Shown: piece by piece, positions 1,585 through 55,309 of the stretch | Numbering within the stretch: the stretch's first letter is position 1 | Layout: every line of letters begins with the position of its first letter | Translations under genes and position numbers: made by a program | From: a virus | Taxonomy: Duplodnaviria; Caudoviricetes | Length of the DNA stretch: 55,309 nucleotides | IMG/VR virus record: IMGVR_UViG_3300044518_000003 | Location: 1 to 55,309 of that record | Reading direction: 5' to 3' (one strand) | Notes under the pieces: model-generated | What the model was told of the DNA's origin: nothing | Databases searched by the model: none | Seen by the model: only the letters and a program-made list of their open reading frames with translations

Positions 1585-1662
1585 CAGTGTTTGATTATTA
1601 TCTCGGGGCCACATTCGGGGTGAATGTGCCGATTATGCAAATCACATAACTGAGAGACCAAA

Positions 1663-2475: not shown

Positions 2476-2548
2476 AAGTGAAACTGAAGTTGAGAAACAA
2501 CTCCGGTTCACGATCTTCAACGCAATGACCAACGCAGGCATTGTGTAA
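2372..2548 (+). CDS. Hypothetical protein (58 aa)
   Basis: MATAQAIPAG...; TAATG coupling to next gene. Confidence 0.55.
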   Translation: MATAQAIPAGVQLMLNLSVLEANVLKAMMQNPLSESETEVEKQLRFTIFNAMTNAGIV

Positions 2549-3027: not shown

Positions 3028-3473
3028 CCAAGAAGATAGTGGGGCGTCGAGTGTCCCGCGTCATCTACACGAAGCAGGGCAGGCGCCTGTACGCGAGCTG
3101 GCGGTATCTGGAAGCCGTCACCATGCAGCTGCAGCGTGGCGGCCCGCAGACCGTCAACGAACTCATGGAAGTGCTGCACCAGAACACCCACCCGTCAACC
3201 ATGATGGTCATCAATGCCTTGCGTCAGGGGCTGGTGCCATATGAACGGCTGCGCATCTGCAGGCGGGAGCGGCCCTTGCGCTCCGGCGAATATCGCCCAG
3301 TCTATGAGTTCAGCCCGAAGGGCGATGCTGCATGGACAAAACAGTCCGAGGCCGAGAAGACGGCACGCTACCGGCGAAAGAACGCCGGCGTGCTGGCGGC
3401 CCGGGAGATTGCCAGAAAGCGGGGCACCCCCGCTGGACCCTTCGATGGGTTGTTCCCATCCGAGGCACGTTAA
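3024..3473 (+). CDS. Basic protein, possible winged-helix DNA-binding protein (149 aa)
   Basis: GTGA overlap start; GPQTVNELMEVL helix and RPVYEF wing-like strand; very Arg/Lys-rich. Confidence 0.6.
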   Translation: MTKKIVGRRVSRVIYTKQGRRLYASWRYLEAVTMQLQRGGPQTVNELMEVLHQNTHPSTMMVINALRQGLVPYERLRICRRERPLRSGEYRPVYEFSPKGDAAWTKQSEAEKTARYRRKNAGVLAAREIARKRGTPAGPFDGLFPSEAR

Positions 3474-27000: not shown

Positions 27001-30000
27001 ACATCTTGGTCTGGAATGCCTTGCGTTCTGCCTTGTCGGCATTCAGGTAGCGGGCATACTCGGTCAGCGCATGAAACTGCTGGAAGCTCGGGGATTCCGA
27101 CTTGAGCGATGCAGCAAGATCCGCACGCATCTGGGCCGTCATCTTCTCGCCATTCAGGTGAGCACGCAGCACATCGACAGCCGGCTTCAGCGGACCATCG
27201 AGCAGCGCCTGGGTCTTCTCGCGCATCAGGTCGAAGGGCATGTTGTGCACCTTGACACCGACTGCCTGACCGATACCCAGCATGAAGGCCTGCTTGTCAC
27301 GCTTCTTGCCGAGGTTCAGCTTGCTGTCAGTCGGCAGGATCGCTTCGCGCATGGCCTTGGAGGACTGCGGCGTGACAGCACCGACCTGCTGCATACGCCC
27401 CACCTTGCTCATGTTGTGGGGGAAGCGCACTTCCACGTCACCCAGCTTCACGCCAGTATCGTCGGCATGAGCACCCATCTGGGTCACCAGATCCTTGATG
27501 GCGTCGAAGGCCGAGGTGATCGACAGACGCTGGCCCTTCTTCGATTCCAGATCCTGCTTGTTCAGCTTCGACTCGTCGAACTGGCCGGGACCATAGGCAT
27601 CCACGAAGAAGTCCGTGCCCAGCTCGTCGTACAGACCCAGCACATGGAGGTTGGCCTTGTAGGGCGTGTCGCTCTCGTTCTCCAGCATGTGCACCTGCTC
27701 CGTCGAGTTCTCGACGGTCGGGTTGTTCATCTGCGTGCGGGGAATGTCCGGACGGGCGTCACCCAGGTAGTGCGACAGCTCCGGAGACGTGTTCACCACG
27801 CGCTCGATTGCATCCGGGAACGCACGGATCCCCTTGCCGAACTCCTCGAGCTTGGCCGGCTGGAGCACGGTCACGTCCTTCACGTTGCGACCTTCACCTT
27901 CACCCGCCTTCACGAACTCACCCGTGTCCATGTCGAAACGCTTCGACACTTCCTTAAGGAAGCCCGCCTTCTCCAGGTGTTCGACCAGCTCGGCAGCCAT
28001 GGCTTGCGGAATGCCCTGGGTGTAACTGATATCTTCCTTGCCGTTGCGAGCCAGGCCCCAGTAGGACAGGATCTTCGTGGCCAGATCGCCATAGGCCGTG
28101 TCCCGTGCCACACCGCTGCGCATGTGATTGAGCAGCGCAGAGGTCATGTTGTTGACGTCCATACCCAGTGCTTCGGCGGCATCCCGTTCATCCAGGTTGC
28201 CGTTGCGGCTACGCGAGGACATGACCCATTGCATGGCGGCGAGACCCGCCGACTCAGCCAGTCCCTGGTTCAGCTTGAAGCTGCCATCGGGCTGCTCTTC
28301 GACGAGGTTCAGCAGCTTGCCGGCACGCCAGCGCTGCGGGCTGATCTCACCCGACTTGAAGCCATCGAGCTTCGACTGGCCAGCCTTGTTCTCGCTGTTG
28401 AGGAAGTCGGCCACGCTGACATTGAGCGCCTTGACCATATTGGCCACGCCCTTGAACACCTGACGGTAGTCGCGGCGAGCCTGCTCATCGAGCGTGCGCT
28501 TGCCACTGTTCTTGCCAGCGGCCGCATTGAACGCTTCCTGTGTGGACAGGGATTCAGCCACCTTCGAGAGCGGCGACTCTTCACCCTGCAGGTTCGAGCG
28601 GCGGGTCTTCGGCAGCTTGAATGCCGAGAGGAACTTGTTGCCGGCCTTCGGCACGGCCAGGTTCGGATAGGACTTGGCCACACCTGCAGGCTCACCCTTG
28701 GCGGCTTCGCTGGCAGTGGGCATGGCCTTCTTCGCCTCAACCGGTGCTTCCGGTTCGGCAGCCGCAGCAGGTTCAGCAGCAGGCTTCTCGACCGGCGTAC
28801 TGTCGATAGCCTTCCCTTCCTGGGTCAGCTTGTCCTCCTCGGCCTTGACCTCGGCATCCGACTTCATAGGCTCTGCGGGCTTTTCAGCAACTTTTTGCTC
28901 AGGTTGCGCAACTTCTTCCACCGGCTTGGCTTCAGCCTTGGCCGGCGCTTCCTTGGAACCAGGAGCAGAAATAGGTGTCTCTGCATTGGCCCGACGATCG
29001 AGCTCGGCCCTGGCCTCCTGACGGAAAGCCTCCTGGCGCGTGTCGAAGTTCTCGTTCGTGCTCTGCTTGTCCAGACCCTTCACCAGACCCTTGAGCACAT
29101 CGGTCGGACGGGTCTTGACGATATCGCGCACGCTCGGACGCCATTCGTCTACCGACTTGCCATCAGCCTGCTTCAGCTCCGTGCGGTTGCCGGCCTCATC
29201 GACCGTACCCGGCACCTGACGCACACCGCTCTTGAACTCATCGGCAATATCCTTCGCCGTCGAGCCAGAGAGGAGAGGATGCAGATCCGTGTGTTCGATC
29301 GGCTTCGCACCCAGATCCGGATAAGCATCGGCCAGGTGGTTGTGCAGATCCGTGAGCATGCGAGCTTCGCCCGAGATGCGCTGAGCGAGATCGACCGAGT
29401 TCTGGCTGTGCGGCGTGATACCGATCGGCTGCGAGGTCTCGTCGTTGGTCAGGAAGAAGCCCTTGCCACGACCCGGAGTAGCAGCGATGCGGTGCACGGC
29501 ATTCTTCTCGCCGGTCTTGCCTTCATCGAGCAGACCGTTGAGCGTCGAAACCTTCTCCTGCTGGCTGCGGGCGAATGCACCGAGATCATCCAGACGCTGA
29601 CGTGCGAGATCCGTGTTGCCCGAGTCGTAGGCCTCACGCACACCCTTCGCATGGTCGAGGGCGGATTCCTTGCCTTCCATCTGGGTCTTGAGGGCCACGT
29701 CTGCGGCCACCTGCCCCGTGGACTTCGAACCATCCGCATTGGGTGCGATCCGGCCTTCAGCGGCCATCTGCTTCAGACCAGCCTGCTGCGCCTTGAGCAC
29801 ATCACCGACCGACTGGAGCGCTGCACGCTGCTTGTCCGTGAGCTCGATCTGGCCTGCCGCTTCCATCTTCAGGATGGTGTCAGCGACTTCCGGATGAACC
29901 TTCTCAGGAGCCAGAGTGGCCATGGCCGCCACGTTCTGAGCTGCTTGCTGGCCTTCGGGCGTCTTGGCCGATTCCTCGGTCACGTCACCCTGCTTGTCAG

Positions 30001-32050
30001 CCACCTGGTCAACCAGTTCGTCCTTCGCTTCGCCTGCACCCTTCATCAGCGGCGACTGCTCGAGCTGCTTATGCAGGTTGGCGATCTCGCTGATGGCAGC
30101 GTTGAAGGGATGCTCCGGTCCCATGGCGTTCAGAATGTCTGGCCGGCTCAGGACAGTATTGGCGACCTGCTCGATACCGCTCTGCAATACCTGGGCAGTC
30201 GTGAGACGGTCTGCAGCCGGAATCTGGTCATCCTTGACGTAGGCGCCCATGGTCTGCATGGCACGGATCAGGTTCGGGGAATCCTTGATGGCGTTATAGG
30301 CCGACTCAGGCAAACCCCATTGCGTAGCGAGCTGCGGATCGAACCGCAGCATGCCGGACACCTGCTTGCTGTACGCCTTTACTTCGTCCTGGGTTGCTAC
30401 GGGGGCATTCGCCGTCGCTTCATCCAGAGATTGCTGAATGGCCGGACCCTGCTGCTGAACCTGTGCACTCAGGTCATCAGCTGCCTGTGCAACATTCTGG
30501 TCCGATACCGGCGAGGCGGCTTCATTAGCCGCTTGTGCAGCTGCACCCTTCTTTGCAGCCAGATCCAGGACAGGACTAGCCACAGCGCCAGCAACCTTCG
30601 CCGTGCCCTTGAGCACCGGAGCGATGACACCCGGCACAGCAGCGGCACCCTTGGCGATACCGAGAGCGGCCGCTCCCGGACCCTGGAGTGCGCCGGCAGT
30701 CAAGGCGCCGGTCAGTGCACCCGAGCCTGCCGCTGCACCCACATTGTCGAGGAGATCCTGACCCGGATTGGCACCCGATTGCTGAATACCGAGATTGGTT
30801 GCGAGTGCACCCGTACCCGACTGGACGCCGAGGGACGTGGCTTCCTTGGCCATGTTGGCACCGACAGCCGGCAGCGAGGGAGCTGCGAGCGGATCGGACA
30901 TGAACGAACGGGACACCTGGCCCGCCAGCATGGCAGCCGGAGCCTGCACCGCAGCTGAAAAGAGGCCTGCCTTGTTGGCAATGATCTGCTTGGCCTGGTC
31001 CGGATCCATCTTCGGATGGCTGGGGTCATCCCCAACCATCTGAACATAGGTCGGTGAGTTCTGGCGAAGCTGGGCATCGGACATGCCCATCACGTTGTTG
31101 ACGGCATCCTGGTAGTTGCCGCCGCCGAACATCAGGCCGTTGGCCGCAGCGTGGGAGGCGTCTTCAGTCATCGCCGCGGCGTTTTTCGCACCCGTGAGAC
31201 CCTTGCCGAGATAGCCCGCTTCCTCGATCGCACCGACGAGCGGCTTGGCCACTGCGCCCACACCCTTGGCGATCGGACCACCGGAGAGCAGCATCCCGGC
31301 ACCATTGGCCAGGTTGTCGGAGAGTACGGTCGGATCGGACAGGTCTGAACCAACGGCGGTCATGGCATCGTTGCCCAGACGCTTCAAGCCTGCGACGAAC
31401 GCACCATCGGTCTTGGCGTCCTGAACTTCCTGCACTGCATTGTCCTGCAGGCCGAGCTGCTTCGTGGTACTCGCCAGATGCTTGTGCATCGCCAGCGCAT
31501 CGGACTCCAGCGTGTCCTGTGCAATGCTGTTGAACTTGTTCTGGGCCTGTGTGATGCCTACACCGGCTGCCGGACTGATGGCACCAGCACCGAGTGCAGC
31601 AATACTGGCCAGCGAGTTGCCGAAGCCAAGTGCCGCACCCGTCGCCATGTCACCTGCGGCCTGCGTCCAGGAACGGGTAGACGCCTGATCTGCCTGCACA
31701 CCGCCTGCGCCCTGCAGCTGAGACTGGACCATGGCCATGCCCTGCTGCACGCCGTACTTGCTGATCAAGTCCTGGGGCGAAAGGCTGATGATGTCCGCAT
31801 CCCTCTGGGTCGGGACTTGGCTCAAGCCCTTGCCAGTGAAACGGGTCACGGCATCCAGATAGGCCTGCGCCGGCGACGTGGTATTGGCTGCGAGCTCGGC
31901 ACGCTTCTGGTCGGTGACCTGAGCAACTTCGGCCTGCTTGTTGGCGGTGTCCGCTACAACCTGAGACTGGGCCGGCGACAGGAAAGGGTTAGGAGTGCCA
32001 GGCTGGCTGGCATCGAGATAGGAACTGAGGAAGTCTGTCGCGGAAGGCAT
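21071..32050 (-). CDS. Virion-encapsidated RNA polymerase (N4 gp50-like, 3659 aa)
   Basis: SKVGRMQ, motif A YLEADGMTNG, motif B RDVAKNPMTTTLYG, motif C KIFDG; giant size; no Cys seen by eye from the MPSATD start. Confidence 0.97.
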   Translation of the reverse strand: MPSATDFLSSYLDASQPGTPNPFLSPAQSQVVADTANKQAEVAQVTDQKRAELAANTTSPAQAYLDAVTRFTGKGLSQVPTQRDADIISLSPQDLISKYGVQQGMAMVQSQLQGAGGVQADQASTRSWTQAAGDMATGAALGFGNSLASIAALGAGAISPAAGVGITQAQNKFNSIAQDTLESDALAMHKHLASTTKQLGLQDNAVQEVQDAKTDGAFVAGLKRLGNDAMTAVGSDLSDPTVLSDNLANGAGMLLSGGPIAKGVGAVAKPLVGAIEEAGYLGKGLTGAKNAAAMTEDASHAAANGLMFGGGNYQDAVNNVMGMSDAQLRQNSPTYVQMVGDDPSHPKMDPDQAKQIIANKAGLFSAAVQAPAAMLAGQVSRSFMSDPLAAPSLPAVGANMAKEATSLGVQSGTGALATNLGIQQSGANPGQDLLDNVGAAAGSGALTGALTAGALQGPGAAALGIAKGAAAVPGVIAPVLKGTAKVAGAVASPVLDLAAKKGAAAQAANEAASPVSDQNVAQAADDLSAQVQQQGPAIQQSLDEATANAPVATQDEVKAYSKQVSGMLRFDPQLATQWGLPESAYNAIKDSPNLIRAMQTMGAYVKDDQIPAADRLTTAQVLQSGIEQVANTVLSRPDILNAMGPEHPFNAAISEIANLHKQLEQSPLMKGAGEAKDELVDQVADKQGDVTEESAKTPEGQQAAQNVAAMATLAPEKVHPEVADTILKMEAAGQIELTDKQRAALQSVGDVLKAQQAGLKQMAAEGRIAPNADGSKSTGQVAADVALKTQMEGKESALDHAKGVREAYDSGNTDLARQRLDDLGAFARSQQEKVSTLNGLLDEGKTGEKNAVHRIAATPGRGKGFFLTNDETSQPIGITPHSQNSVDLAQRISGEARMLTDLHNHLADAYPDLGAKPIEHTDLHPLLSGSTAKDIADEFKSGVRQVPGTVDEAGNRTELKQADGKSVDEWRPSVRDIVKTRPTDVLKGLVKGLDKQSTNENFDTRQEAFRQEARAELDRRANAETPISAPGSKEAPAKAEAKPVEEVAQPEQKVAEKPAEPMKSDAEVKAEEDKLTQEGKAIDSTPVEKPAAEPAAAAEPEAPVEAKKAMPTASEAAKGEPAGVAKSYPNLAVPKAGNKFLSAFKLPKTRRSNLQGEESPLSKVAESLSTQEAFNAAAGKNSGKRTLDEQARRDYRQVFKGVANMVKALNVSVADFLNSENKAGQSKLDGFKSGEISPQRWRAGKLLNLVEEQPDGSFKLNQGLAESAGLAAMQWVMSSRSRNGNLDERDAAEALGMDVNNMTSALLNHMRSGVARDTAYGDLATKILSYWGLARNGKEDISYTQGIPQAMAAELVEHLEKAGFLKEVSKRFDMDTGEFVKAGEGEGRNVKDVTVLQPAKLEEFGKGIRAFPDAIERVVNTSPELSHYLGDARPDIPRTQMNNPTVENSTEQVHMLENESDTPYKANLHVLGLYDELGTDFFVDAYGPGQFDESKLNKQDLESKKGQRLSITSAFDAIKDLVTQMGAHADDTGVKLGDVEVRFPHNMSKVGRMQQVGAVTPQSSKAMREAILPTDSKLNLGKKRDKQAFMLGIGQAVGVKVHNMPFDLMREKTQALLDGPLKPAVDVLRAHLNGEKMTAQMRADLAASLKSESPSFQQFHALTEYARYLNADKAERKAFQTKMYLEADGMTNGPLMAMMLFTRGNFTASFLRKVAMGGIYVGTEPKGAKDKTLTSTVQRANTDGPIDMYGAVSDDFAANIKRIRDGLGDGEQDKAYGESLDHVLKLMNLMLGDKFVNFNDQSGDPEFGRDVAKNPMTTTLYGAGKAGIASKLLGMLTDKIYQQMSDASVHDRGFGDLFNGDAAKQKIFQDAMQSLTGRVWSIEDGEKVYKDQALPDNKSTTPQDYELNSKEIGALHENIKTLFVEPLRQSIENVIGDSLMESFDLVRQATQAQSIVNAEYYRKAVDAALAKKQASGDYAKGEYLSQDELNQITASLKHLAPVVHAPGQTFSIGSTLKTLLTEGKPGAKKRSPVEFAAALDDNNRVQAKLEQPTNIGVKALASLNIGMGDGKMMQLISTMKNAITGTLKIFDGMNMPLDKIDLGSEQANESVWNTLHGNPLRDVHTSFSDFLKNDPIGGIEEGSQAHSALVRALFGPGEKAGDYPLDAVRSYMGELSQQLDDGAREVTARQQTLDTVNTSTDQMAAASAPHQIQDREAVDGTPEEQATRLSEIYFDKLEKLQEEAPEKPRENISPELAAAGTATPSGARDLSMTALGKLTQQLKLKIPKTQADLINQIQKSLAAAGFRVIYGTREQLLAHNRDLGGAVDATLLTDPKISGFTRIGQDGTGQIWMVSPSSETLTHELVHAATMKTVQAYYAGEHLGANHEIIAGAIQNMEKLQAQFLSLGDQVERGTPRLQRAFANAKAAILGRLNDSTLDTATQKAQGLNEFMAWALSNQQLTRLQQRTEANPLVRLAQQAIDFLKQIVWGKKVAPQDPGNDMFSNLMFNASLVVRSQPTMQDVMHDTTMMQSAAYGHSDDLTQKDQAFDRAVTDWLKEVPSPTVEFARRLSQATDAVDAGAEVALHFATRFPMTLQEQTTFSKVVAALATEARFDPNVMAEAQKIWSTVSKQLTPEMLMDKQAAGTDTSSALWERERGYGQERLNALLGNDYERMDAQKRSTLLPAFLALYMTHEPFQQALDGMKLPALEKSHADNLPDRTIENVTGRIMDSFTRRISGVGQSDDVRASMDALSKHFNGIAQNRESFADTFLDKTGSASDGLNAKLVSVMNDGADAVVKGAEALHDKFGNRFTEALASSTRILAAFVSQDHAGHVSDGFLKFLNQGDNARPFRELARDAIGRTKSNAPLFDMISTIHAWVHRVRQEFRDVVPETIAGKFSEAPSDETWSMMHRAMGRAELASLAQKDALDLMRNPETLKDKTAALEEAIHQIDPANAKLLLKKSDQLADYMMNGKTSSNLLRNATAIASLFNEKAAKPFKGDRGDLVKALDQLVTHYAYGHVAESDRQALSELMAKESDGMQFVLSSLQGQYRDEQSKAMESPMAMFNHYKGFVPTLQDPGSHLVVADDAEHGRLTGMGYSRMADYQGSSAEHGKTGRGYYYLPVSGRAPYEQGLMQNIRQSAGGVDVVNGRTLGMTAGRIVGAKKVAQATEMIRSGYEKGATEHLMPVFNQRGEVVAYERSLDPALAAKVENDTRLHKMLGVWQGRQVEEFQAKQYNNEVVGRLGDMYAEDLKKDPTNQSQYVNLFSAAEQAKDPVLADAMKLITPQVKSLLEEQFGKNQFWVRRELVTDVAGVRKASVGDPWTGVSRWSDETQAQVRQIAMSVFGNKAFVYMTKAEQKWQNLVSDVRGNILIKSLVVPFSNMISDTYQMISRGVPVKSIVTGFPRKTAEVQAFVKSEVRRIEAGVELRAAQGRNDRPAIIKLQAEIQAITDSHKRLSIWPLLEAGQFSSVTGGHATHEDVELTSGKLYSWVDSLVNKLPGAMKTAGRYALLTKDTALYQGIEKALDYSVFLSKAVYYDDLMRRQGMNHEQAMDMLAQTFTNHVRLRGRFRSYMENMGMAWFYNYKIRAAQVAMSTIRQNPFHALVAGLTPAPSLFGTVGSAISDNFMTQAVEGRIGPSIGLGELVGAPIIDPLLHLF

Positions 32051-32098
32051 CTGGGGAATCCCGATCCGATAATAAGTTTGAGGTAGGAGTGTACCTGG

Positions 32099-32138
32099 AA
32101 AACAGCAAACTCCACCCCCATCAGGAGGCGGAGTTTGC
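32099..32138 (-). terminator. Rho-independent terminator
   Basis: Minus strand GCAAACTCCGCCTCC-tgat-GGGGGTGGAGTTTGC followed by TGTTTT. Confidence 0.7.
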
Positions 32139-32150
32139 ACAGACCATCTC

Positions 32151-45049: not shown

Positions 45050-45251
45050 GTTGATCTCCTGCGTCAATGCTTTGCTGGGCTTGACGGGCTGCATCAGCCT
45101 CCACCGCAGCGGTTTTGTTCAGCGTCTGGACCGCCTGCGTCACTTCAGCCTCGGGGCTCGGTGCCGCAGACGACTTGCCAAAGATCGACTTGATGAAGGT
45201 CACACCCCCATTCAGGATCGACACGATGGTTGCGATGATCGTCAGGCTCAT
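44910..45251 (-). CDS. i-spanin (Rz-like)
   Basis: N-terminal hydrophobic segment, helical periplasmic part, directly after endolysin, overlaps lipoprotein gene. Confidence 0.7.
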   Translation of the reverse strand: MSLTIIATIVSILNGGVTFIKSIFGKSSAAPSPEAEVTQAVQTLNKTAAVEADAARQAQQSIDAGDQHAQDVADSRHEQLAAAAGLRARAAVLEASRDDSAAGGADTGTRTHG

Positions 45252-45679
45252 TGCACGTTCTTGAAAAAGATGTGGTTGCCGATCTGCACCGTCCGGGTAG
45301 CTGTTTTCGCCCAGGCCGGCGCAGCAATACTGGCTGCGTAGTAGTGCGTAGCGCCATCGGTCGGATCCGGTGCAAAGTTGCCAAGCACCTGGAGTGCAGC
45401 GTCTTCACACTGTGCATATGCACTCTGGGGAATTTGCTTCGAGCCAGAGAGGAAGGGATAGTTGGGGTCGTTGCTGTTCCAGCTCGAGAACTGGTACGGG
45501 GCTTTACACACCGCCGTGTAGTTCTTCCCCCACCATATGATTGGGGAAAGCACACGGTTAGCAATGACCCAGGCAACTCCAACCTGCCCTTCCTGCGGCT
45601 CTCCACGGGCTTCACCCCACAGAGTTCTCGTCACAGTGTCGAGATCACCCGCAGTATATGTTGGAAGAGTAACAGACAT
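45248..45679 (-). CDS. Endolysin, SleB/Hydrolase_2-type cell wall hydrolase
   Basis: TLWGEARGE, VAWVIANRV, YQFSSWN, DPTDGATHYY, IGNHIFF. Confidence 0.92.
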   Translation of the reverse strand: MSVTLPTYTAGDLDTVTRTLWGEARGEPQEGQVGVAWVIANRVLSPIIWWGKNYTAVCKAPYQFSSWNSNDPNYPFLSGSKQIPQSAYAQCEDAALQVLGNFAPDPTDGATHYYAASIAAPAWAKTATRTVQIGNHIFFKNVQ

Positions 45680-45939
45680 CAACCGTTATCCTTGTGCGAG
45701 ACCTCAAGCACCCGGGCAATGATCCCGAGGAACGTGCCGGCAGCCGGCCAGAACGTCTGCGGTTCCTGGGGGAAGAGAGTCTGGAGGTACGGGGAAAGCA
45801 CCGGCCAGTTGTCCGAGAGTTCGGCAGCCAGGTGGGCCAGTTCGGGAGTGGCCGCCATCAGGCCACTGAGCACGAGCATGATGCGGACTTCGGACCAACG
45901 CCAGGCGTCCTTCCAGTCCTCGACGAGCTTGATCTTCAT
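45679..45939 (-). CDS. Putative holin
   Basis: MKIKLVEDWKDAWRWS N-terminus, hydrophobic segments, GIIARV end; directly upstream of endolysin. Confidence 0.7.
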   Translation of the reverse strand: MKIKLVEDWKDAWRWSEVRIMLVLSGLMAATPELAHLAAELSDNWPVLSPYLQTLFPQEPQTFWPAAGTFLGIIARVLEVSHKDNG

Positions 45940-47109: not shown

Positions 47110-47495
47110 GCCTGGGTCACCTCGAAGGTTGCGTCGAGCATCGGGAAAGCCGAGACCACCACCTTGTAGGTGGCCGGCTGCGTGAATTCCAGATCGCAGT
47201 GGTCATCTGTGCAGGTGTGTGACGTGCCATCGATCGAGATCGTGCACGGCACCGGCAGGTTCGTGAGGTTCATGCCGGTAAGCACAGCCGTGTTGGCTGG
47301 ACGGGGCACGATGGCACCGTCGCTCACATAGCTGGTTGCTGGATCACCATCACCCAGCACAATCGAACCACCATCCGGCTTGAACTGGGTTTCGACCATG
47401 AAGGCCGGCACATGACCCCGGGTCTCGATCTTTCCGGTGCTATCCGCGATGACGAACTTCGTCTGGGTGTGGTCGATCTCTACTTCTTCACTCAT
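47106..47495 (-). CDS. Tail-associated hypothetical protein (129 aa)
   Basis: ATGA-coupled on both sides; beta-rich. Confidence 0.7.
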   Translation of the reverse strand: MSEEVEIDHTQTKFVIADSTGKIETRGHVPAFMVETQFKPDGGSIVLGDGDPATSYVSDGAIVPRPANTAVLTGMNLTNLPVPCTISIDGTSHTCTDDHCDLEFTQPATYKVVVSAFPMLDATFEVTQA

Positions 47496-49183
47496 CGTTT
47501 TGCCTCAAAGACTGTCATCGAAATGGTTGCGTCCACAGCGCTGCTACCGCCATTGTTGATGAAGTTGGAATTGCCGTAGAGCGTGAGCGTGTGCGTGCCT
47601 GCAGAGAGTGTGCCCTGCCATGTCGTAAGGACCGGTCCTGGTGTGTTTGCATCGGTAGACACTCCGACAACACCTGTATCAGTGCTGCCATCGATTTTCA
47701 GTCCAATACTGAAGTCATTGCCTCCCGAACCCTGGTAGACGATCAAGCACTGACCGCCAGAAGCGGTGTAACTCGCAGTCCAGTTCCAGCCGCCAGATGT
47801 GTTGGAACCCGCTGTGGCCTGCCAGTTCGCCATCGTCGTGACAGCATTCGCACCGATCTTGGCGGTGGTCACCGTCAGGTCACCAATCACCGCAGCAGCC
47901 ACACTCAGGGTCGGCACACCATTGACGTTCTGAACAACAAACGGCTGCTGGCCGCTGTAACCGGGAAGCTGGACCGTGAACTTGTCCGCCCGCACGTTGA
48001 AACCAGTCGTGTTCCCATTGTTGATCAGGTTCAGGCCGGCAATGTAGCCATTGGTGTCCAGCGTTACTGCCCACTGGCTGTAGACCCCATTGAGAGACTG
48101 CTGCAGCGTGGTAATCGACGAAGAGTTGCTATTGACCGTGGTCGAGAGCGTACTGACCGAGTTCGCAGTCGCCGTGTCCGCTGCTGCCCGTGCAGTCTGC
48201 TCGGCAGTGATCGCCGCATTGGCCGAGCTCACCGAAGCCACCACCGAATCGATGCGATCGGACAGTGCACCATCGGCGTCGGCCCGAGCTGTCTGCTCCG
48301 TAGTCAGGTTCGCATTGGTCGAATCCAGCGATGCACTGACCGTATCGATGCGGGTAGACAGGGCGCTATCAGCATCCACCCGGGCCGTTTCCTCCTCCTG
48401 GATCAGGGCCGACTGGTTGTTGAAGGTGGCCGTCAGCGTGAGCAGGTTCGACGCATTCGACTGGTTGTAGGTTGAAAGCGCCGTCTGCAGATCCTGGATC
48501 TGAGCCAGATTCGAGCCAACGGAGGCTGTTACCTGGGTGATCTGGGTGGCCAGCGCCGTGTCCGCATCCGCCCGGGTCTGCTGCTCCTCCACAATGTCCG
48601 CAGTGTTCTGGGCGACATTGGCCACCACAACATCGATACGGTTGCTCAGTGCCGTGTCGGCATCTGTGCGGGCCGTCTGCTCCTCATTGATGGCCGCCGT
48701 ATTGCCGGCAGAGACAGCCACGGTCTGGTCGATGCGCAGTGAGATCGCACTTTCCGCCGTGGCCCGAGCTGCCTGCTCGTCCTGGAGTGCCGCCACGTTC
48801 TGGTCGATCCGGGCGCCTACCGTGGTGAGTGAGATCGCCGTCGAGTCGGTCTCCGTTTGCAGGGCTGCCTGCAACGAAGTGACCGAGGCCGTGACGATAC
48901 TATCAGCCAGCTGGCGGGCATCCACTTCGGCCTGAAGCACCGCCTGGGCTGCCGTAGTCGCAGTCGCCGTAGCGGTTTGCGTCACCGAAGCAATGAACGT
49001 GTCCTGTACTGCCTGGACGAGCAGATCCTTGTCTGCCTGGGTCAGACCTCCCGAATCGCCCTTGAAGTAGGGCGCAAAACTGGTATCCATGGTCGAACCA
49101 TCGGGTGCGACCAGCGAGATGACCAGGTTGGTGGCTGTCAGGGTTGCCGACAGATCCTCTTCAGAAACGGTCACATCGCTCAT
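47492..49183 (-). CDS. Tail fibre: coiled-coil shaft, DUF1983/gpJ-C-like domain and beta-sandwich tip
   Basis: 32-aa repeats; NGYIAG...F.VRADKF.V...PFVV; IGDLTVTTAKIGANAVT. Confidence 0.8.
   Translation of the reverse strand: MSDVTVSEEDLSATLTATNLVISLVAPDGSTMDTSFAPYFKGDSGGLTQADKDLLVQAVQDTFIASVTQTATATATTAAQAVLQAEVDARQLADSIVTASVTSLQAALQTETDSTAISLTTVGARIDQNVAALQDEQAARATAESAISLRIDQTVAVSAGNTAAINEEQTARTDADTALSNRIDVVVANVAQNTADIVEEQQTRADADTALATQITQVTASVGSNLAQIQDLQTALSTYNQSNASNLLTLTATFNNQSALIQEEETARVDADSALSTRIDTVSASLDSTNANLTTEQTARADADGALSDRIDSVVASVSSANAAITAEQTARAAADTATANSVSTLSTTVNSNSSSITTLQQSLNGVYSQWAVTLDTNGYIAGLNLINNGNTTGFNVRADKFTVQLPGYSGQQPFVVQNVNGVPTLSVAAAVIGDLTVTTAKIGANAVTTMANWQATAGSNTSGGWNWTASYTASGGQCLIVYQGSGGNDFSIGLKIDGSTDTGVVGVSTDANTPGPVLTTWQGTLSAGTHTLTLYGNSNFINNGGSSAVDATISMTVFEAKR
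48107..48778 (-). repeat. Seven tandem 32-aa (96-bp) degenerate repeats within the fibre gene
   Basis: EQTARADAD.ALS.RID.V.A....N.A.I.. recurring at exact 32-residue spacing. Confidence 0.85.
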
Positions 49184-49506
49184 GATGTCCTCTGGGTGCA
49201 GGCGTCGAGCACGTCAATCTCGATGGTGTTCGAGATCAGCACATTCCCTGCGGTGTCCGTGAGACGGACGTCCATCAGGTGCGGCATCACCAGCCACTTG
49301 ATCGTGTCGGTGGGGATTGCCGAGATGCTGATCTTCCCGGTGGCCGCATCGAGGATCGTGCACGTCAGCGACTGCACGAACTCGAAGTTGGTCTGGTTGC
49401 GGATATCCGCCTCCAAGGTGTAGCCATCGATCGGCCACGCCGCACCGTTGTTGGTGATCGAGCCAGAGAAAGAAAAGGTCTGCCCGCGCTTGAATGACAC
49501 TGCCAT
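49180..49506 (-). CDS. BppU-like beta-sandwich tail/adaptor protein
   Basis: FKRGQTF...IDGYTLEADIR...GKISIS...DVRLTD..G pattern; fibre context. Confidence 0.6.
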   Translation of the reverse strand: MAVSFKRGQTFSFSGSITNNGAAWPIDGYTLEADIRNQTNFEFVQSLTCTILDAATGKISISAIPTDTIKWLVMPHLMDVRLTDTAGNVLISNTIEIDVLDACTQRTS

Positions 49507-49766
49507 CAGACCACCTCCTTCACACCACGCCGAGCCAGTTTCTTCTGGGCATCGGCCAGCTGACGGGTGAGCTTTTCGATCGTCTCATTGGCCGCCGTCA
49601 GGCTCTGGTCCAGCTGCCTGGCGGATTCGGTCATGAGCTGCGCCTGTGCCTGGGCATCAGCGGCCTTTTGCACGGCACGATCGAGAAGCTCGCTCATCAG
49701 GTTGTTGCGCGCAGTTTCCTTTAGGTCTGCCAGGCGGCGCTGCATCGCCTGTTGTTGATCACTCAT
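49506..49766 (-). CDS. Small coiled-coil protein (possible fibre chaperone)
   Basis: 86 aa with heptad pattern, lying between fibre genes. Confidence 0.65.
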   Translation of the reverse strand: MSDQQQAMQRRLADLKETARNNLMSELLDRAVQKAADAQAQAQLMTESARQLDQSLTAANETIEKLTRQLADAQKKLARRGVKEVV

Positions 49767-49786
49767 ATCGGATCCAGTGAGAAGGG

Positions 49787-52700
49787 TTAGGCGATTCGCC
49801 GCACGACAATGCGGCCTGTTCGGGGCGTGCTCAACTGCAGCGAACCCAGCGAGTTCCAGAGCGTGGTGGTATCAGCCGGGAGTTGGGTATTAGCCGCCGC
49901 ACACCAGACCGAGGCACTCGTTTCCTCCTGAACGAGGGTGGCCGAGGCCAGTGCATGACCGATCACCGACTTGCACGCCGTCTTCGTGCTCACCAGCAGC
50001 CGGGAGAACGCCGAGAACTGACTGGGCAGACCGAAGCCATTCAGGAAGTTGCCGTTGCTCCAGAACTGGCCAGCGTAGGCTGTGTTGTTGGGGAGCAGCA
50101 CTTCACTCGTGCTGAAGGCGACATTGACCGGGGCGAACATCAGCACAACCTCATAGAGCTGGTTGTCAGCTGTGGCAATGTGCAGCGGAATGTATCCGGC
50201 GTTATTCACGTCGATCACTGCACCCTGTCCGACTGCCAGCACCGTGTCGGACGTCGCCGCCGTGTTGTTGATAAGACCCCCAGCGCCGGCGTCGATCGCA
50301 TTGGCCCCGCCCGTGCCCTGTACCGAGTGGATCCCAGTCCAGGTGCCCGCTGCCGGTTCCTGGCTGTTCAGGTAGCCGATTACCCGGTAGGAGCTATTGG
50401 CTGCCACGGCGGCCGCCGAATAGATGACCCCTGCCGAGTTCGACGCAGCGCTGATCGTCGTCGGGCTGATGAAGTTCGACTCGTCGAGCTGCATGCCACT
50501 CGCCAGGTTCACCACGCACAGCACCGGCACACCATTGTTCCAGGCTGCCAGCAGAGCCAGGGAGAAAGGAACGTTGCCTACCACGCCGAGTGTCGCCCCC
50601 TGCGGAATGACCAACGCCAGGTTGCCGATCACGTTCTGCTTCAGACCCAGCGGTGTGGCCGCATAGACACTGAGGCTCGGCCACTGCATCGGCCCGTTCG
50701 GCAACCACTGCACGTTGAGTGCGCCGCTGTCGGCCCAGGCTGCAACCTTCTGGAGCTGTGCCGGAATGGCTTCTGCAGACGGAATCGCATTGGCACCAGC
50801 GAACGCCTCCGGAGTCGAGACCGTACCACCTGCATTGAGTGCAATCGCCGTGTTTGCGGTCAGCTCGCCATTGACCGTGATCGTCCCGTCGAGCTCGGTT
50901 GAGAGAGCCAGCTTGACTGCATTGTTGAACGTGGCCGGCATGCCGAACACGGTCTCATTGTCGAACGCCACCTCATTGTTGAACTGCACCAGCCCATTGA
51001 GAATCAGCTCACCGTTGACCGTCACATCCCCGTCCAGCTCAGTAGGAGCCGTTGCCTTGAAGATGAGGCCATCGATATAGGTCTTGTTGTGCGACGTGAA
51101 GGACGCGTTGGAGACCACCGTGTTGTTGAACGTGGAGAGCGCATCGAACACCGTGAGGTTGTCGAAGGTCGTCAGGTTGTTGAACACGGCTTCGCCGTTA
51201 TGGGTCCAGGTGTTGTCACAGATCACCAGGCCCTGGAACTTGTGGTCGCCCTTGAAGAGTGCATCACCCCAGATCGTCCCTTCGAGCTGGGGGACCCAGA
51301 CCGAACGGAAGTAGAAGTAGAAGGCGCCTTTGTCCTCGACGAAGGCCTGCCAGCCTTGCTTGGGCGTGAAGAACTTCCAGTCTCCCGAGTGCGTGACTAG
51401 CGCCACGTTGCCATCCTCACCGGCCCACTCACCCGTTGCCCCAGTCGGGACGATGTAACGGTCACCGATACTGGGAGAAGCCGGGGGAGCCGTGACCGTC
51501 ATGGATGCCACCGACAGATGGGCGAGCGTATCCATCGCCTCGAGGTTGTCCTCGTAGGTCTTGGACCAGTTGGCCATACCAGCCACACCGGCGATCGACA
51601 GGCCAAGATTCAGGCCGAGGGTCTGCACCGCCCCACTGCCGCTGAGTGTCACCACATCAGGCGAGGACAGCGAATTGCTCTCGATGGTCAGCGTTCCAGT
51701 GCGTGCACCGAGTGCCGTGGGCGTGAACTGCACCTCGAGCTGGGCTGTGCCGCCGCCTGCCGCAACCGTGGCCGGAGTGGAACCAACGAGGGAAAAATCC
51801 CCATCAACGGTTACCTTGGAGATCTGCAGCACGTCCGAGCCGTTGTTGGTCAGCCGGAAGGCCTGCGTCGGCAGAGTGTTGCCAACCAGCCCGGTGCCGA
51901 AGGCCAGCTCGTACACCGACAGCGTGGACGTGGCCCCGAGATCGGGAGCCGGGTCACTCGCCGGCCCGAGTGCATTGAAGGCCTGGGCCTGCACCACAAT
52001 GCCCGGGTTGGTGTTGAACTGGTTGGCGCTTGAGAGCACCCCTTCGACCGTGCCCGTCGTGTCCGAGGCGTTCATCGCCCACAGGCTCGTCGAGATGTCG
52101 TTGGTGTCGCAGTAGGCCTGGAGCGCACCGACCCACAGCACATCGGTCGAACCTGCCGTCTCGAAGTTGCCGCCCCACTCGCCAATGAGGATCGGCGCGA
52201 TACCCTGCTTCGGGATGAATCCCCAGAAGGCGTCCCAGACGATCGGCATGTTGGCCGGGAAGTCCGCATCCGAGAGCCAGTCCTGACCGGCCTGCGTGTA
52301 CTCGTGCGGCGAGTAGACCAGCTTTTCCTGGATCGGAATCTTCACCGGGCGGGTGGCCACGCCAGCCAGATCCTGAGCGTAGACCGACCAGGACGTGTAG
52401 GCCTTGCCGGCGAACGGCACATCGCCCTTGGATTTGATGCCCTCGACGATGATGAGCACGTTCGGGTTGATCGCCTGAATGTCCGTGGCGATGCGCTCCG
52501 CAGCTGCCGGCCAGCCGGTAAGCGGATCATCGTCCCAGGTGCACGCATACGGCTCGTTCACCAGGTCGAAGCCACAGACCGTGGGCTCATTCAGGTAGTG
52601 CTGGGCGAGAAACTCCCACGCGGCGATGAGCTGCGCCTCGCTGCGCGGTTCGGCGGCCAGACCTGCCGTGTCGCCCAGGTCGCCCGGATCCATCGTCGTG

Positions 52701-53176
52701 TACCACTTGCCAATGAACCCCCGCTCATTGTCCGAGTTGGGCGATGAGCAGTGCATGTCGAAGAAGATCCGCAGCCCCAACTTCTTGCAGTAGGCCACCA
52801 CCTTGTCGAGCACTTCGATGGTCGTGATGACGTCGGCCGACGTGTTGTTGGCGCTCGGCGTGACTCCCGGCAGCAGGAAGTCCGGGTTGTAGATGCCCGA
52901 CATGGTGTAGCTGTCAGCCATCTTGCGACCCGGCCAGGTCACATCCTCACAGAGCGTGATGCGCATGCAGTTGAAGCCGAGCGAGGCCACCTGATCCAGG
53001 AGACCCTCGTAGACCACGCCATCGACGGTCACGGTTCGGTACGGACGAGACTCGAGACCGAGCCCCATGAGCACGTTCTCGAACCCGTACCACGCCACAC
53101 TTTTCAGGCGATACGGGGTGCCATCTTCATGAACCAGATGACCCCCGGAGGCCTTCAGCCACTGGAACTCGCTCAT
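49787..53176 (-). CDS. Fibre/spike protein with N-terminal GH5 endoglucanase, Ig-like (ASH-type) domain, DUF2793-like domain, hexad repeats and C-terminal domain
   Basis: WYGFE, GFNCMRI, DMH, GFDLVNEP (E208), LIIVEG, KLVYSPHEY, APILIGEWGG (E333); FTPTALGARTGTLTI; PPASPSIGDRYIV...W.G...W.FFTPKQGW. Confidence 0.9.
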   Translation of the reverse strand: MSEFQWLKASGGHLVHEDGTPYRLKSVAWYGFENVLMGLGLESRPYRTVTVDGVVYEGLLDQVASLGFNCMRITLCEDVTWPGRKMADSYTMSGIYNPDFLLPGVTPSANNTSADVITTIEVLDKVVAYCKKLGLRIFFDMHCSSPNSDNERGFIGKWYTTMDPGDLGDTAGLAAEPRSEAQLIAAWEFLAQHYLNEPTVCGFDLVNEPYACTWDDDPLTGWPAAAERIATDIQAINPNVLIIVEGIKSKGDVPFAGKAYTSWSVYAQDLAGVATRPVKIPIQEKLVYSPHEYTQAGQDWLSDADFPANMPIVWDAFWGFIPKQGIAPILIGEWGGNFETAGSTDVLWVGALQAYCDTNDISTSLWAMNASDTTGTVEGVLSSANQFNTNPGIVVQAQAFNALGPASDPAPDLGATSTLSVYELAFGTGLVGNTLPTQAFRLTNNGSDVLQISKVTVDGDFSLVGSTPATVAAGGGTAQLEVQFTPTALGARTGTLTIESNSLSSPDVVTLSGSGAVQTLGLNLGLSIAGVAGMANWSKTYEDNLEAMDTLAHLSVASMTVTAPPASPSIGDRYIVPTGATGEWAGEDGNVALVTHSGDWKFFTPKQGWQAFVEDKGAFYFYFRSVWVPQLEGTIWGDALFKGDHKFQGLVICDNTWTHNGEAVFNNLTTFDNLTVFDALSTFNNTVVSNASFTSHNKTYIDGLIFKATAPTELDGDVTVNGELILNGLVQFNNEVAFDNETVFGMPATFNNAVKLALSTELDGTITVNGELTANTAIALNAGGTVSTPEAFAGANAIPSAEAIPAQLQKVAAWADSGALNVQWLPNGPMQWPSLSVYAATPLGLKQNVIGNLALVIPQGATLGVVGNVPFSLALLAAWNNGVPVLCVVNLASGMQLDESNFISPTTISAASNSAGVIYSAAAVAANSSYRVIGYLNSQEPAAGTWTGIHSVQGTGGANAIDAGAGGLINNTAATSDTVLAVGQGAVIDVNNAGYIPLHIATADNQLYEVVLMFAPVNVAFSTSEVLLPNNTAYAGQFWSNGNFLNGFGLPSQFSAFSRLLVSTKTACKSVIGHALASATLVQEETSASVWCAAANTQLPADTTTLWNSLGSLQLSTPRTGRIVVRRIA

Positions 53177-53550
53177 GACACCACCAGGTTTGGCCGATAC
53201 GTGATGTTGCCGGTCGTCGCGTCACGGGTGACTGCCGGCTGGGTGAGCGTGACCACCGTGCCGTTGTCGCGAGAGTAGGTCACATGCCAGGCATCGCACA
53301 GGTCGGGGAAGGTCGTGTTGAACTTGTCAGCCATCCACGTCCCGATGTTGCCATCAGGCCATACGACGCCCTTCGAGGTCACCACACCACCGGCCTCTTC
53401 GACGTTGAACACCGAGACGTAGGCACTGGTGAGCGCCCAGCCGATCAGGTCCGTGGTCTGCGTGCTCGTCGAGGATGAGCCGTTGCCGCCACCATCCATG
53501 ACCCCACAGTAGGGCCGGCGATTGCGGTCCAGCGTGTTTCGCATGCCCAT
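53173..53550 (-). CDS. Hypothetical virion-associated protein (125 aa)
   Basis: TAATG coupling upstream and ATGA coupling downstream; VVWPDG...TQPAVTRDA. Confidence 0.7.
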   Translation of the reverse strand: MGMRNTLDRNRRPYCGVMDGGGNGSSSTSTQTTDLIGWALTSAYVSVFNVEEAGGVVTSKGVVWPDGNIGTWMADKFNTTFPDLCDAWHVTYSRDNGTVVTLTQPAVTRDATTGNITYRPNLVVS

Positions 53551-54260
53551 TATTTCCACCCGTTGCGTTCGAAGCGTTCGTTGGTCGTAGACAGGCTCGT
53601 GCCTACCAGATCCAGGGAGACAACCTCATTGCAGCACGCCTCGTACTGGTTCAGGTGGTCCTGGGCGTTTGCCATGGACTCCTGCGTTTTGATCTGGCCG
53701 TATGCCCGGTAGGCAATCCAGTTGCGCAGCGCCGGCACAAGCACATCGGGCAGCACGATCACCTGGGTCAGGTCAGCGAGCGTGAGCGGAACGTGCTTGG
53801 CCTGGTAAGCGATACTCAGCAGCTTGCCGCCGATCGGAGTCGGCACCTGGAGCATGTTCCCCTGCGGCGTGAACACGGAGAGCGGATCACCCTCATCGTT
53901 CAGCGGGAGCTCACGCCCGTAGCTGTCAAAGACATTGAGGATCTTGATCACGTCTTCCAGGAACAGGTCGTCCAGACCCCCCATGTCCATGATGTAGGAC
54001 GTGGTGTTGGGGTTGGATGCGGCCTGCGACTGGGCGTACTTCTGCAGCAGCCAGTAGGTCTGCTGGCCGTCGATCATCTGGATCAGGACGTCCTTTTCAC
54101 TCAGGACGAAGCGGGAGTAGAGCTTGATCAGCCCGTCATTGGCAAAGCGGATGATCCGCTCTTTCCCGGCGTCGGTAATGAGCCCCGTCCCCTCTTCCGA
54201 GAGGGCGAGACTCGACAACTCTCCATAGGAGAGATCTGCAAACAGATCGGAGATATCCAT
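53550..54260 (-). CDS. Head-tail adaptor/structural protein (N4 gp67-like)
   Basis: LSYGELS, LYSRF, DVIKILNV, PLND...SVFTP, F..NGW end; follows terL; GAGG SD. Confidence 0.88.
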   Translation of the reverse strand: MDISDLFADLSYGELSSLALSEEGTGLITDAGKERIIRFANDGLIKLYSRFVLSEKDVLIQMIDGQQTYWLLQKYAQSQAASNPNTTSYIMDMGGLDDLFLEDVIKILNVFDSYGRELPLNDEGDPLSVFTPQGNMLQVPTPIGGKLLSIAYQAKHVPLTLADLTQVIVLPDVLVPALRNWIAYRAYGQIKTQESMANAQDHLNQYEACCNEVVSLDLVGTSLSTTNERFERNGWK

Positions 54261-54268
54261 CCCCCACC

Positions 54269-55309
54269 TCACACGATGTAGTTAGCCAGCCCGCTTGGCT
54301 CGGACGCGTGATGCTCTTCCTCGTAGATTTGCACTTCATGGGGGGTAGCCGGAGCGGAGTCGCTCGGTCGCCACGGCTTGAGATAACCGAGCATCGACAC
54401 CGTGTCGATGAAGTCATCCTTGCCCTTGATACCCGACTGGGTGACCAGCTTGAGCTGGTTGGTGGCGAGGCCCATGATGATGCTGTGCTTCATCTCTTCC
54501 GGGAAGTACATCTTTCCGGCCTTGAACCAAGGAACAACAAGATTGAAGCGGGAGAGCTTGTCGGTGATTGGACGAATACCGGGGGAGTTTCCCTTCTCCG
54601 CAGACGAGGCGAAATTGAACCAGATGTTCCGGGTAATTTGCTCGCGCTGCAGCCAGGAAATGAATCCGCCCTGCTGGCCCGTGATCTCGATGCCTACCTG
54701 CTGCGGTTTATATAGCTGTACCAGGCGAAATAGATCATCGACTGTTTTGTCCATCTTCTGGCGTTCGATGATGCCATCGACCCAGAACCAGTCGCCGTTG
54801 GAATTGTACGCCCACACACTGATCACGGAGAAGTCTGCCGTCTGCTTTTCGCTCGTGGCAAAGTCGGTCGTGATGTAGAAGTTGAACGACCCCTTGTTCT
54901 CCAGCAGGTTGGTGCGCTTGTACCAGCGGATCTCCTCATCCTGGACGAGACGCTCTTCCTCGGACGTGATGCGCAGCATCAGTTCCTGCATGAAGGCAGC
55001 GACCTTGCCCGTCTTCACGGCCATGTCGTACTGGTCCTTCACATAGGTGTAGGTGAAGCGGTCCTCCCAGGCACCACAGAACTCTTCTTCCGTGCAGGGG
55101 AAGCGCTCACACACCGGCCACACGTTCACGTCCCAGGCGCCTGACTCGACTGCCTCGATCAGAATGTCGTCGGAGTTGAACGGCGTGCCATTGAACACCA
55201 CCTTACGCCGGGTTGGGTCCAGTGCATGGTTCACGCCCTTGTATACAGTGTCCTTGATCGCCTCCATCGCCGCCTTTGACTTGGCGTCGTCATCCGAGAT
55301 CAGGTCATC
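54269..55309 (-). CDS. terL: Terminase large subunit, C-terminal part (5' end beyond window)
   Basis: Frame open to window edge (DDLISDDDAKS); GTPFN, FMQELML, YITTDFATS, ADFSVI, KDDFIDTVS nuclease motifs. Confidence 0.95.
   Translation of the reverse strand, partial: DDLISDDDAKSKAAMEAIKDTVYKGVNHALDPTRRKVVFNGTPFNSDDILIEAVESGAWDVNVWPVCERFPCTEEEFCGAWEDRFTYTYVKDQYDMAVKTGKVAAFMQELMLRITSEEERLVQDEEIRWYKRTNLLENKGSFNFYITTDFATSEKQTADFSVISVWAYNSNGDWFWVDGIIERQKMDKTVDDLFRLVQLYKPQQVGIEITGQQGGFISWLQREQITRNIWFNFASSAEKGNSPGIRPITDKLSRFNLVVPWFKAGKMYFPEEMKHSIIMGLATNQLKLVTQSGIKGKDDFIDTVSMLGYLKPWRPSDSAPATPHEVQIYEEEHHASEPSGLANYIV

Follow-up and report, generated by a model that had tools for sequence, protein, structure and literature searches.

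The IMG/VR virus record IMGVR_UViG_3300044518_000003, a metagenome assembly of 55,309 bases with an estimated completeness of ~75% (the window, by which we mean this whole stretch of DNA), carries on its minus strand a gene for a protein in which a GH5 cellulase-type domain is followed, within a single open reading frame (ORF), by the modules of a phage tail fibre. Residues 1-412 of the protein correspond to positions 51940-53176, the stretch that an initial annotation, made from the sequence, had described as a fibre protein with an intact GH5 domain in an N4-like phage. The gene and the parts of its product, from the N-terminus onwards, are as follows.

49787..53176, minus strand: GH5 fibre gene, 1129 amino acids, ATG start, encoding a GH5 domain, a choice-of-anchor-D immunoglobulin (Ig)-like domain, DUF2793, a repeat shaft, module B and a beta-sandwich tip
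51977..53176, minus strand: GH5 (cellulase-type) catalytic domain, residues ~1-400, barrel from about residue 6, with E208 as predicted acid/base and E333 as predicted nucleophile
51632..51931, minus strand: Ig-like choice-of-anchor-D domain, residues ~416-515 (NCBIfam NF012200, 63 bits against a cut-off of 45, E 3.3e-17)
51293..51550, minus strand: DUF2793 domain, residues 543-628 (Pfam PF10983, E 2.6e-26; PHROGs 7049 and 35360, 'tail fiber protein')
50777..51259, minus strand: putative fibre shaft, residues ~640-800, marked by a duplicated ELDGxxTVNGEL motif and by imperfect short repeats of the type xFNNxxxFDN
50294..50752, minus strand: fibre module B, residues ~809-961, strongly conserved, with the core LDExNxISPTTIS...YSAxAVxANSxYRV
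49790..50281, minus strand: C-terminal tip, residues ~966-1129, a beta-sandwich

The eight GH5 motifs that had been read from the translation are all present, in order and at the positions claimed, between residues 29 and 336: WYGFE (29-33), GFNCMRI (67-73), DMH (140-142), FDLVNEP (203-209), LIIVEG (241-246), KLVYSPHEY (285-293), WGFI (318-321) and PILIGEWGG (328-336). The two catalytic glutamates named with them are likewise in place, E208 in FDLVNEP and E333 in IGEWGG, and are aligned with the NEP and GEFG motifs of the Acidothermus cellulolyticus endocellulase E1. The profile search that had been proposed as a check placed Pfam PF00150 (Cellulase, GH5) well above threshold on residues 58-371 (109.4 bits against a cut-off of 23.5, E 2.8e-31, profile positions 25-271 of 272), and a six-frame search of the genome recovered the same family at 113 bits. 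When PDB sequences were searched with phmmer, 17 distinct chains were returned at E <= 0.001. The best of these were E1 (1VRX_A, 1.4e-42; 1ECE_A, 4.5e-42), aligned to residues 9-357, followed by CelE2 (8FC0, 5.8e-39), the Xanthomonas major endoglucanase (4TUF, 3e-27) and a Pyrococcus endo-1,4-beta-glucanase (3VVG, 2.5e-18); every PDB relative at E <= 1e-17 carries the name endocellulase or endo-1,4-beta-glucanase. E1, the Xanthomonas enzyme (EngXCA) and the Pyrococcus enzyme (EGPh) presumably all belong to GH5_1.

Conservation around the active site is equally complete. An alignment of 13 relatives shows no variation at R72, H142, N207, E208, H291, Y293 and E333 and next to none at W366; in the GH5 rows of a second alignment, R72, H142, NEP, H-[ED]-Y and E333 are kept in 15 of 15 and W366 in 14 of 15. 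These eight residues make up the canonical GH5 active-site set. Because the Pfam score, the PDB matches at E ~1e-42 and the conserved residues agree, the motif set cannot be put down to chance. As judged from the sequence, an intact GH5 domain with a complete active-site set is confirmed, and it is predicted to be a catalytically competent endo-beta-1,4-glucanase. From its homology over 349 residues to E1, the best solved relative, the domain would fold as a (beta/alpha)8 barrel. The NEP and GE[FW]G catalytic motifs of E1 and the phage domain align, whereas alignment gaps mark phage insertions at about residues 85-112 and 150-180, and E1 is a secreted bacterial enzyme whereas the phage domain is fused to a fibre.

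A fusion of this kind could arise in an assembly, and we had to consider that a chimera or a frameshift artefact had brought a cellulase gene and a fibre gene together, as the initial annotation had foreseen. The contig is a metagenome assembly of partial estimated completeness, and we found no full-length relative: none of 351 phage records covers >= 80% of the query (tblastn), and a word-index search with residues 520-1129 returned the query alone. Against this, a second protein, P0004 (930 residues), independently carries GH5, Ig and DUF2793 in the same order in one polypeptide, with 44% identity over residues 14-684, and it is the sole carrier of both PF00150 and PF10983 among the 108 non-self protein matches; a search of genome contigs found no locus for P0004. 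In addition, a soil-metagenome run yielded a Logan contig (21,268 bases) that covers positions 49500-53700 and shows 0 differences and neither joints nor loose ends, although it possibly derives from the source sample and therefore counts as a second assembly and not as independent data. The guanine-plus-cytosine (GC) content is even across the gene. With P0004 and the Logan contig in hand an artefact is scarcely credible, and the sequence evidence indicates that the GH5-Ig-DUF2793 fusion is real.

The part that follows the GH5 domain reads as a fibre. The Ig-like domain also matches the Pfam HYDIN/DUF1573 Ig families. DUF2793 occurs elsewhere either singly at the N-terminus or as four tandem copies (in P0112 and P0116, for example) flanked by an N-terminal tail-collar domain and a gp53-like C-terminus. 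When residues 520-1129 were searched exhaustively with HMMER, 9594 proteins were returned at E <= 0.001, and many of the best 150 of these match module B; the N-termini of proteins that share module B match tail-fibre PHROGs (P0120, P0121). Module B, whose core can be written more fully as LDExNLISPTTIS...IYSASAV.ANSPYRVVG and for which there is no Pfam or PHROG family, appears to be a very widespread and confidently folding phage-fibre module. In most relatives it is followed by a C-terminal domain of ~100 residues ending in W.ELR, and the window protein has a different, longer tip, which forms the C-terminus of a handful of other proteins (P0110, with 64% identity, P0111, P0113, P0117, P0123, P0198 and others). 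The shaft repeats between DUF2793 and module B were spotted by eye in the translation; this region has no Pfam or PHROG match, is poorly conserved and has predicted local distance difference test (pLDDT) values below 50 in the monomer model.

AlphaFold was run on residues 520-1129 with an alignment from which 7 misaligned rows had been removed; the model was confined to these residues because rows with DUF2793 only are misplaced in full-length alignments. It has a mean pLDDT of 66.1, with values of 81-90 in the DUF2793 core (residues ~560-610), mostly above 90 in module B and 70-95 in the tip; the shaft is unmodelled. Foldseek returned 2 PDB matches at E <= 0.001 for this model, neither of them meaningful (template-modelling (TM) score <= 0.15, root-mean-square deviation ~19 Å). 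A wide VIA-align search gave generic galectin, jelly-roll and carbohydrate-binding-module-like beta-sandwich matches (best Z 6.4), all of those listed falling on the tip and barely covering module B and DUF2793; no chain reached Z >= 8. Among predicted viral structures in BFVD there were 22 matches at E <= 0.001 (best E 2.3e-13), most of them to unnamed Caudovirales proteins, with a few weaker rows labelled side tail fibre or tail-collar fibre. When three copies of residues 840-1129 were predicted together, the scores (0.00 and 0.01) lay below the mark of 0.42, a result that speaks neither for nor against a trimer. The assignment as a fibre is thus borne out by DUF2793, the two tail-fibre PHROGs, the kinship of module B with proteins that have tail-fibre N-termini, and the BFVD matches; together with the matches of the tip, these features lead us to read residues 520-1129 as a phage fibre with a lectin-like tip, the tip being probably its receptor-binding end.

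The genes that surround the fibre gene bear on both its function and the identity of the phage.

54269..55309, minus strand: terminase large subunit, C-terminal part (PHROG 38, E 7.6e-63); the ORF continues past the end of the window
53550..54272, minus strand: adaptor of the N4 gp67 type, a virion structural protein (Pfam SU10_adaptor, E 2.3e-11; PHROG 2125, E 4.4e-75)
53173..53559, minus strand: ORF of 128 amino acids in the interval between adaptor and fibre; its stop overlaps the start of the fibre gene (ATGA)
49506..49766, minus strand: ORF of 86 amino acids, between the GH5 gene and the second fibre gene
49180..49506, minus strand: ORF of 108 amino acids, also between these two genes
47492..49183, minus strand: second tail-fibre gene, 563 amino acids, with Ala/Thr-rich repeats (PHROG 496, 'tail fiber protein', E 3e-22)
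45248..45682, minus strand: endolysin, a SleB-type cell-wall hydrolase (Pfam PF07486, Hydrolase_2, E 1.9e-19)

Along the minus strand the order is terminase, adaptor, the 128-residue ORF, the GH5 protein, the ORFs of 86 and 108 residues, the 563-residue fibre, small genes that include the endolysin, and the portal. The placement of the GH5 gene in the tail module after the adaptor gene, as first described, is therefore right once the one intervening ORF is allowed for. The N4-like affiliation claimed at the same time also holds. A 3689-residue ORF (21071..32140, minus strand) is the virion RNA polymerase, with 2334.6 bits to PHROG 2206 over profile positions 14-3404 of 3406, and the PHROGs of portal, gp57-type protein, major head protein, gp67-type adaptor and terminase follow one another in the order usual for the N4-type structural module, collinear with Achromobacter phage JWAlpha and with Erwinia phage S6. 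By this giant polymerase and this module order the contig is that of an N4-like phage (Schitoviridae). The adaptor is 40% identical to JWAlpha gp83 and 36% identical to S6 gp097 (BLASTP), and at the DNA level the structural module is matched best by a Xanthomonas phage and by Achromobacter phages. Since the portal shares 61-64% identity with its counterparts in JWAlpha and in Erwinia phages phiEaP8 and Ea9-2, we regard the window phage as a distinct lineage.

Several of the neighbouring genes deserve comment. The 128-residue ORF is translationally coupled, by its ATGA overlap, to the GH5 fibre gene. It has no family match in Pfam, PHROG or NCBIfam and no counterpart among JWAlpha gp81-83, S6 gp93-97 or the proteins in the same slot of an uncultured relative (L004, see below) when these were compared with the window's module by BLASTP, and an Atlas search offered small viral proteins without names as a lead (score 0.87 against a guide value of 0.9; structure TM 0.68). 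It could be a connector of the fibre to the adaptor, a candidacy that has neither family nor Atlas support. The 108-residue ORF has a weak match to an LtfC-like beta-sandwich, below the cut-off (E 0.0037). In the slot where the window has the GH5 fibre and the second fibre gene, JWAlpha has a single protein of 817 residues; the presence of the second fibre gene implies that the window phage probably has two kinds of fibre. Finally, as a separate SleB-type endolysin is encoded, the GH5 domain is not the lysis enzyme.

A gene for a viral cellulase may also be read as a non-structural auxiliary metabolic gene, here a soluble cellulase that would help the infected host to use plant cellulose. The sequencing run with this DNA is labelled soil metagenome, and carbohydrate-active enzymes (CAZymes) of soil viruses have often been read as carbon-cycling genes, according to PMC13507307; the same report, however, excludes tail-fibre-linked CAZymes from such counts. 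Here the enzyme forms one ORF with DUF2793 and the fibre modules, inside the tail module between the adaptor and the second fibre gene, and there is no evident signal peptide, the barrel beginning at about residue 6. We consider an auxiliary role highly improbable, and we found no support for the plant glucan that had been listed among the possible targets.

A much closer parallel is offered by Erwinia phage vB_EamP-S6 (S6; Schitoviridae, Waedenswilvirus), likewise N4-like, whose gp095 is described as a virion-associated GH5 endoglucanase. According to the published account, the GH5 domain of gp095 is C-terminal and the protein degrades carboxymethyl-cellulose; the phage uses cellulose as its first receptor and needs cellulose synthesis for infection, which is inhibited by Congo red (PMC9544554); S6 virions are reported to have cellulase activity (PMC13220884). 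A figure legend in PMC9544554 depicts gp095 with two choice-of-anchor-D Ig domains and both catalytic glutamates, and homologues of gp095 are noted there in phages Skulduggery, Parlo and SJM3. The S6 genes run terminase (gp098), structural protein (gp097), gp096, GH5 hydrolase (gp095), GH48 (gp094), lysis genes and portal, so that the enzyme occupies the same slot as in the window, and in both phages a protein with GH5 and choice-of-anchor-D Ig follows the gp67-type adaptor gene. The GH5 domains of the window protein and gp095 are 32% identical (E 1e-41), and the Ig domain of the former is 29-33% identical to the two Ig domains of the latter (BLASTP). The domain order, however, is reversed: gp095 (782 residues) consists of a short N-terminus, two Ig domains and a C-terminal GH5, whereas the window protein (1129 residues) begins with GH5 and continues with one Ig domain, DUF2793, shaft and tip, an architecture that is not of the S6 type. 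Pfam scans of the window's tail module revealed no counterpart of the S6 GH48.

The S6 data also bear on the idea that the enzyme serves mainly for release and spread through a cellulose-rich biofilm matrix and not for receptor recognition or entry. Virion-borne depolymerases can serve both entry and release. Yet S6 needs cellulose synthesis for infection itself (PMC9544554), and the fusion to a fibre of the receptor-binding type fits a role in entry, which makes a function confined to release quite improbable.

Other N4-like and related phages place enzymes in comparable positions. Escherichia phage N4 has, in the same polymorphic region, the enzyme-bearing tail protein gp65, which targets the cyclic di-GMP (c-di-GMP)-dependent secreted NGR glycan, and the enzyme is proposed in PMC9544554 to be a deacetylase/mannase that modifies the glycan and does not depolymerise it. 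That S6 and N4 both depend on c-di-GMP-stimulated exopolysaccharides is a parallel drawn explicitly in the same report (PMC9544554), so the concept of cellulose as a receptor, including the c-di-GMP connection that the initial annotation had suggested, is already published for this family. In the tblastn search of the phage collection, H1-H34 among the 40 matches listed cover the GH5 domain only. They include Pseudomonas phage Skulduggery, Serratia phage Parlo, Klebsiella phages ZX1, SJM3, LASTA and SopranoGao, and many Erwinia phages, among them the N4-like S6 and phiEaP8, and in the cultured phages the annotation of these genes reads endoglucanase, cellulase, hydrolase or tail protein. Among the matches listed, the closest cultured-phage GH5 is the 'hydrolase' gp18 of Skulduggery (44.6% identity, E 1e-96; PHROG 18474), a phage of P. 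fluorescens SBW25 with an N4-gp56-type capsid gene. It too lies in the structural module, but its GH5 domain is C-terminal and, unlike that of the window, comes without DUF2793 or a fibre part; the near-identical P0009 has a Gp77 fibre-tail-adaptor domain and Ig domains before GH5.

Among uncultured sequences, scans with the GH5 alignment yielded 34 loci (9 viral, 25 metagenome), whereas a search of viral contigs with the single GH5 sequence yielded none. In six of the 34, a terminase and an adaptor are encoded as well, with 67-75% and 46-48% identity, respectively, to their window counterparts; these six represent three distinct contigs: L004 (= L030), L005 (= L026, containing L006) and L025. 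They are the nearest phage lineage that we found, with GH5 in the same slot at 39-47% identity; unlike the window protein, theirs have Ig domains before GH5 and an Ig domain plus an SGNH/GDSL esterase after it. DUF2793, shaft, module B and tip were found in 0 of the 34 loci at E <= 1e-5. As S6 gp095, Skulduggery gp18 (P0009) and these close relatives all have material before GH5, the enzyme-first order of the window protein, in which GH5 starts the polypeptide and is fused to a full fibre, is unusual, P0004 being the sole other example that we found. A narrow search of the literature on Schitoviridae and phage tail cellulases gave no account of a phage fibre with GH5 at its N-terminus.

A quick maximum-likelihood tree of 96 GH5 domains places the window domain as sister to P0004 (Shimodaira-Hasegawa-like approximate likelihood ratio test (SH-aLRT) 95), and both inside a clade of 31 rows (SH-aLRT 98) that also holds Skulduggery gp18 and L004, L005 and L025; S6 gp095 falls outside it. 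Because the method was quick, the tree is unrooted and several long branches were flagged, we draw no direction of transfer from it.

The combinations in which these GH5 domains occur are varied. Pairing with an SGNH/GDSL esterase recurs (L004:7818-10928, with the esterase at residues 633-797, E 4.1e-17; P0003, P0005, P0015, P0017, P0021), and a second esterase-bearing protein of 1047 residues lies downstream in L004 (12268-15411). The pairing hints at acylated, for example acetylated, glucan targets in this lineage. Two tandem GH5 domains are present in P0002, P0003, P0005, P0006, P0008 (= L007:7746-10901), P0013 and P0014, and the tandem copies fall in different sub-clades of the tree. In all three close relatives (L004:7740-7880, L005:7740-7880, L025:4858-4998) the ORF upstream ends in the first half of an Ig-like domain and the start of the GH5 ORF (MSITIPPFGS...) is the second half of that domain. 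The stop/start overlap, ...GTACCATGAGTATTAC..., is conserved at the nucleotide level in the three contigs, with the conserved junction CCATGAGT, and would reflect either a programmed -1 frameshift fusion or one Ig domain split over two polypeptides.

These observations weigh on the nature of the substrate. A virion depolymerase fibre could act not on cellulose proper but on another host glycan with a beta-1,4-linked backbone, such as xanthan-like or substituted glucan, mixed-linkage beta-glucan, mannan-type exopolysaccharide, capsule or O-antigen. The GH5 family spans several specificities. The window domain belongs to the divergent 31-row clade, apart from S6 gp095, and has insertions relative to E1; the esterase after GH5 in L004 and P0003 suggests substituted glycans; and the best DNA matches of the structural module are Xanthomonas and Achromobacter phages. 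On the other hand, the PDB relatives at E <= 1e-17 are without exception named as enzymes acting on cellulose or beta-1,4-glucan, and the sole assayed phage relative acts on carboxymethyl-cellulose (PMC9544554). We judge a substrate of this other kind rather unlikely.

The explanation that we favour, and hold to be moderately probable, is a virion fibre with an active endo-beta-1,4-glucanase whose tip and module B bind a surface structure and which cuts a beta-1,4-glucan of the host, probably cellulose, as in S6. The fibre would presumably be trimeric, with the C-terminal tip and module B at its distal end for binding the receptor, and the GH5 domains would be tethered via the Ig-like linker at the opposite end of the shaft. 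There they would cut the host's secreted beta-1,4-glucan, most likely bacterial cellulose, and so open the way to the outer membrane for the short tail, in the manner of Erwinia phage S6. We prefer this account because the GH5 residues are intact, the PDB relatives are named as endocellulases or endoglucanases, kinship with gp095 and synteny with S6 are evident, three relatives have GH5 in the same slot, residues 520-1129 are fibre-like, the fusion is real and a separate endolysin is present. By analogy with E1 and S6 gp095, the initial annotation was reasonable in its more general proposal of a virion that may be directed at cellulose or another beta-glucan.

Several points weigh against this account. 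As residues 9-33 already align with the first-strand region of E1, the barrel begins at about residue 6 and there is no N-terminal attachment domain before it, which leaves the mounting of the protein on the virion unexplained; to our knowledge, characterised fibres and tailspikes attach by their N-termini. BLASTP revealed no similarity to JWAlpha gp82 or to the N-terminal regions of the relatives' GH5 proteins. A single-sequence AlphaFold prediction of residues 1-520 had a mean pLDDT of 41.7 and gave no triose-phosphate isomerase (TIM)-barrel model, and the resemblance of the tip is to generic beta-sandwiches, its Z of 6.4 lying under the guide value of ~8. Lastly, the GH5 domains of the window and of S6 gp095 are in different clades of the domain tree, and with this separation and an identity of ~32% the specificity of the window enzyme could differ.

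The enzyme-first order can be accommodated in another way, as a 'reversed' depolymerase fibre that carries a mobile GH5/choice-of-anchor-D cassette. The enzyme, being N-terminal, would presumably be proximal to the virion and the lectin-like tip distal; the fibre would first bind a surface receptor, after which the GH5 domains, carried on Ig linkers close to the tail, would remove the cellulose mesh that surrounds the tail axis. The GH5 and choice-of-anchor-D unit would be a cassette that N4-like phages graft onto different tail proteins: before a fibre (window, P0004), before an SGNH esterase (closest relatives) or after an adaptor domain (Skulduggery, S6). In the closest relatives the cassette would be joined to its upstream partner across the conserved stop/start overlap inside the Ig domain. 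Taken whole, this proposal is tentative and, in our estimation, somewhat unlikely.

Clues to the host are broad. The GC content of the contig is 55-63%, and the hosts of its nearest cultured relatives belong to Erwinia, Achromobacter, Pseudomonas, Xanthomonas and Burkholderia. For module B, 11 loci were recovered from beta- and gammaproteobacterial genomes (Herbaspirillum, two of Pseudomonas, Rhodocyclaceae, two of Methylotenera, Chromobacterium, Halovibrio, Chromohalobacter, Robbsia and one betaproteobacterium), which may serve as a broad host hint only. Many such bacteria make cellulose.

Tail proteins with a GH5 domain are already known from N4-like and other podophages; what is new here is the enzyme-first architecture fused to a complete fibre, a rare arrangement that raises the question of how the protein mounts on the virion. 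The finding is not surprising enough to alter current views. For soil viromics it carries a caution, in that a viral GH5 is read here as a structural device for infection and not as a carbon-cycling auxiliary gene. The S6-type device, in which an N4-like phage uses a cellulase against a c-di-GMP-dependent exopolysaccharide, would extend beyond the Erwinia phages to an uncultured soil lineage, where at least four distinct contigs (the window and three relatives) have GH5 in the same slot. This suggests that the phage family repeatedly meets cellulose-type matrix glycans as its first barrier or receptor.

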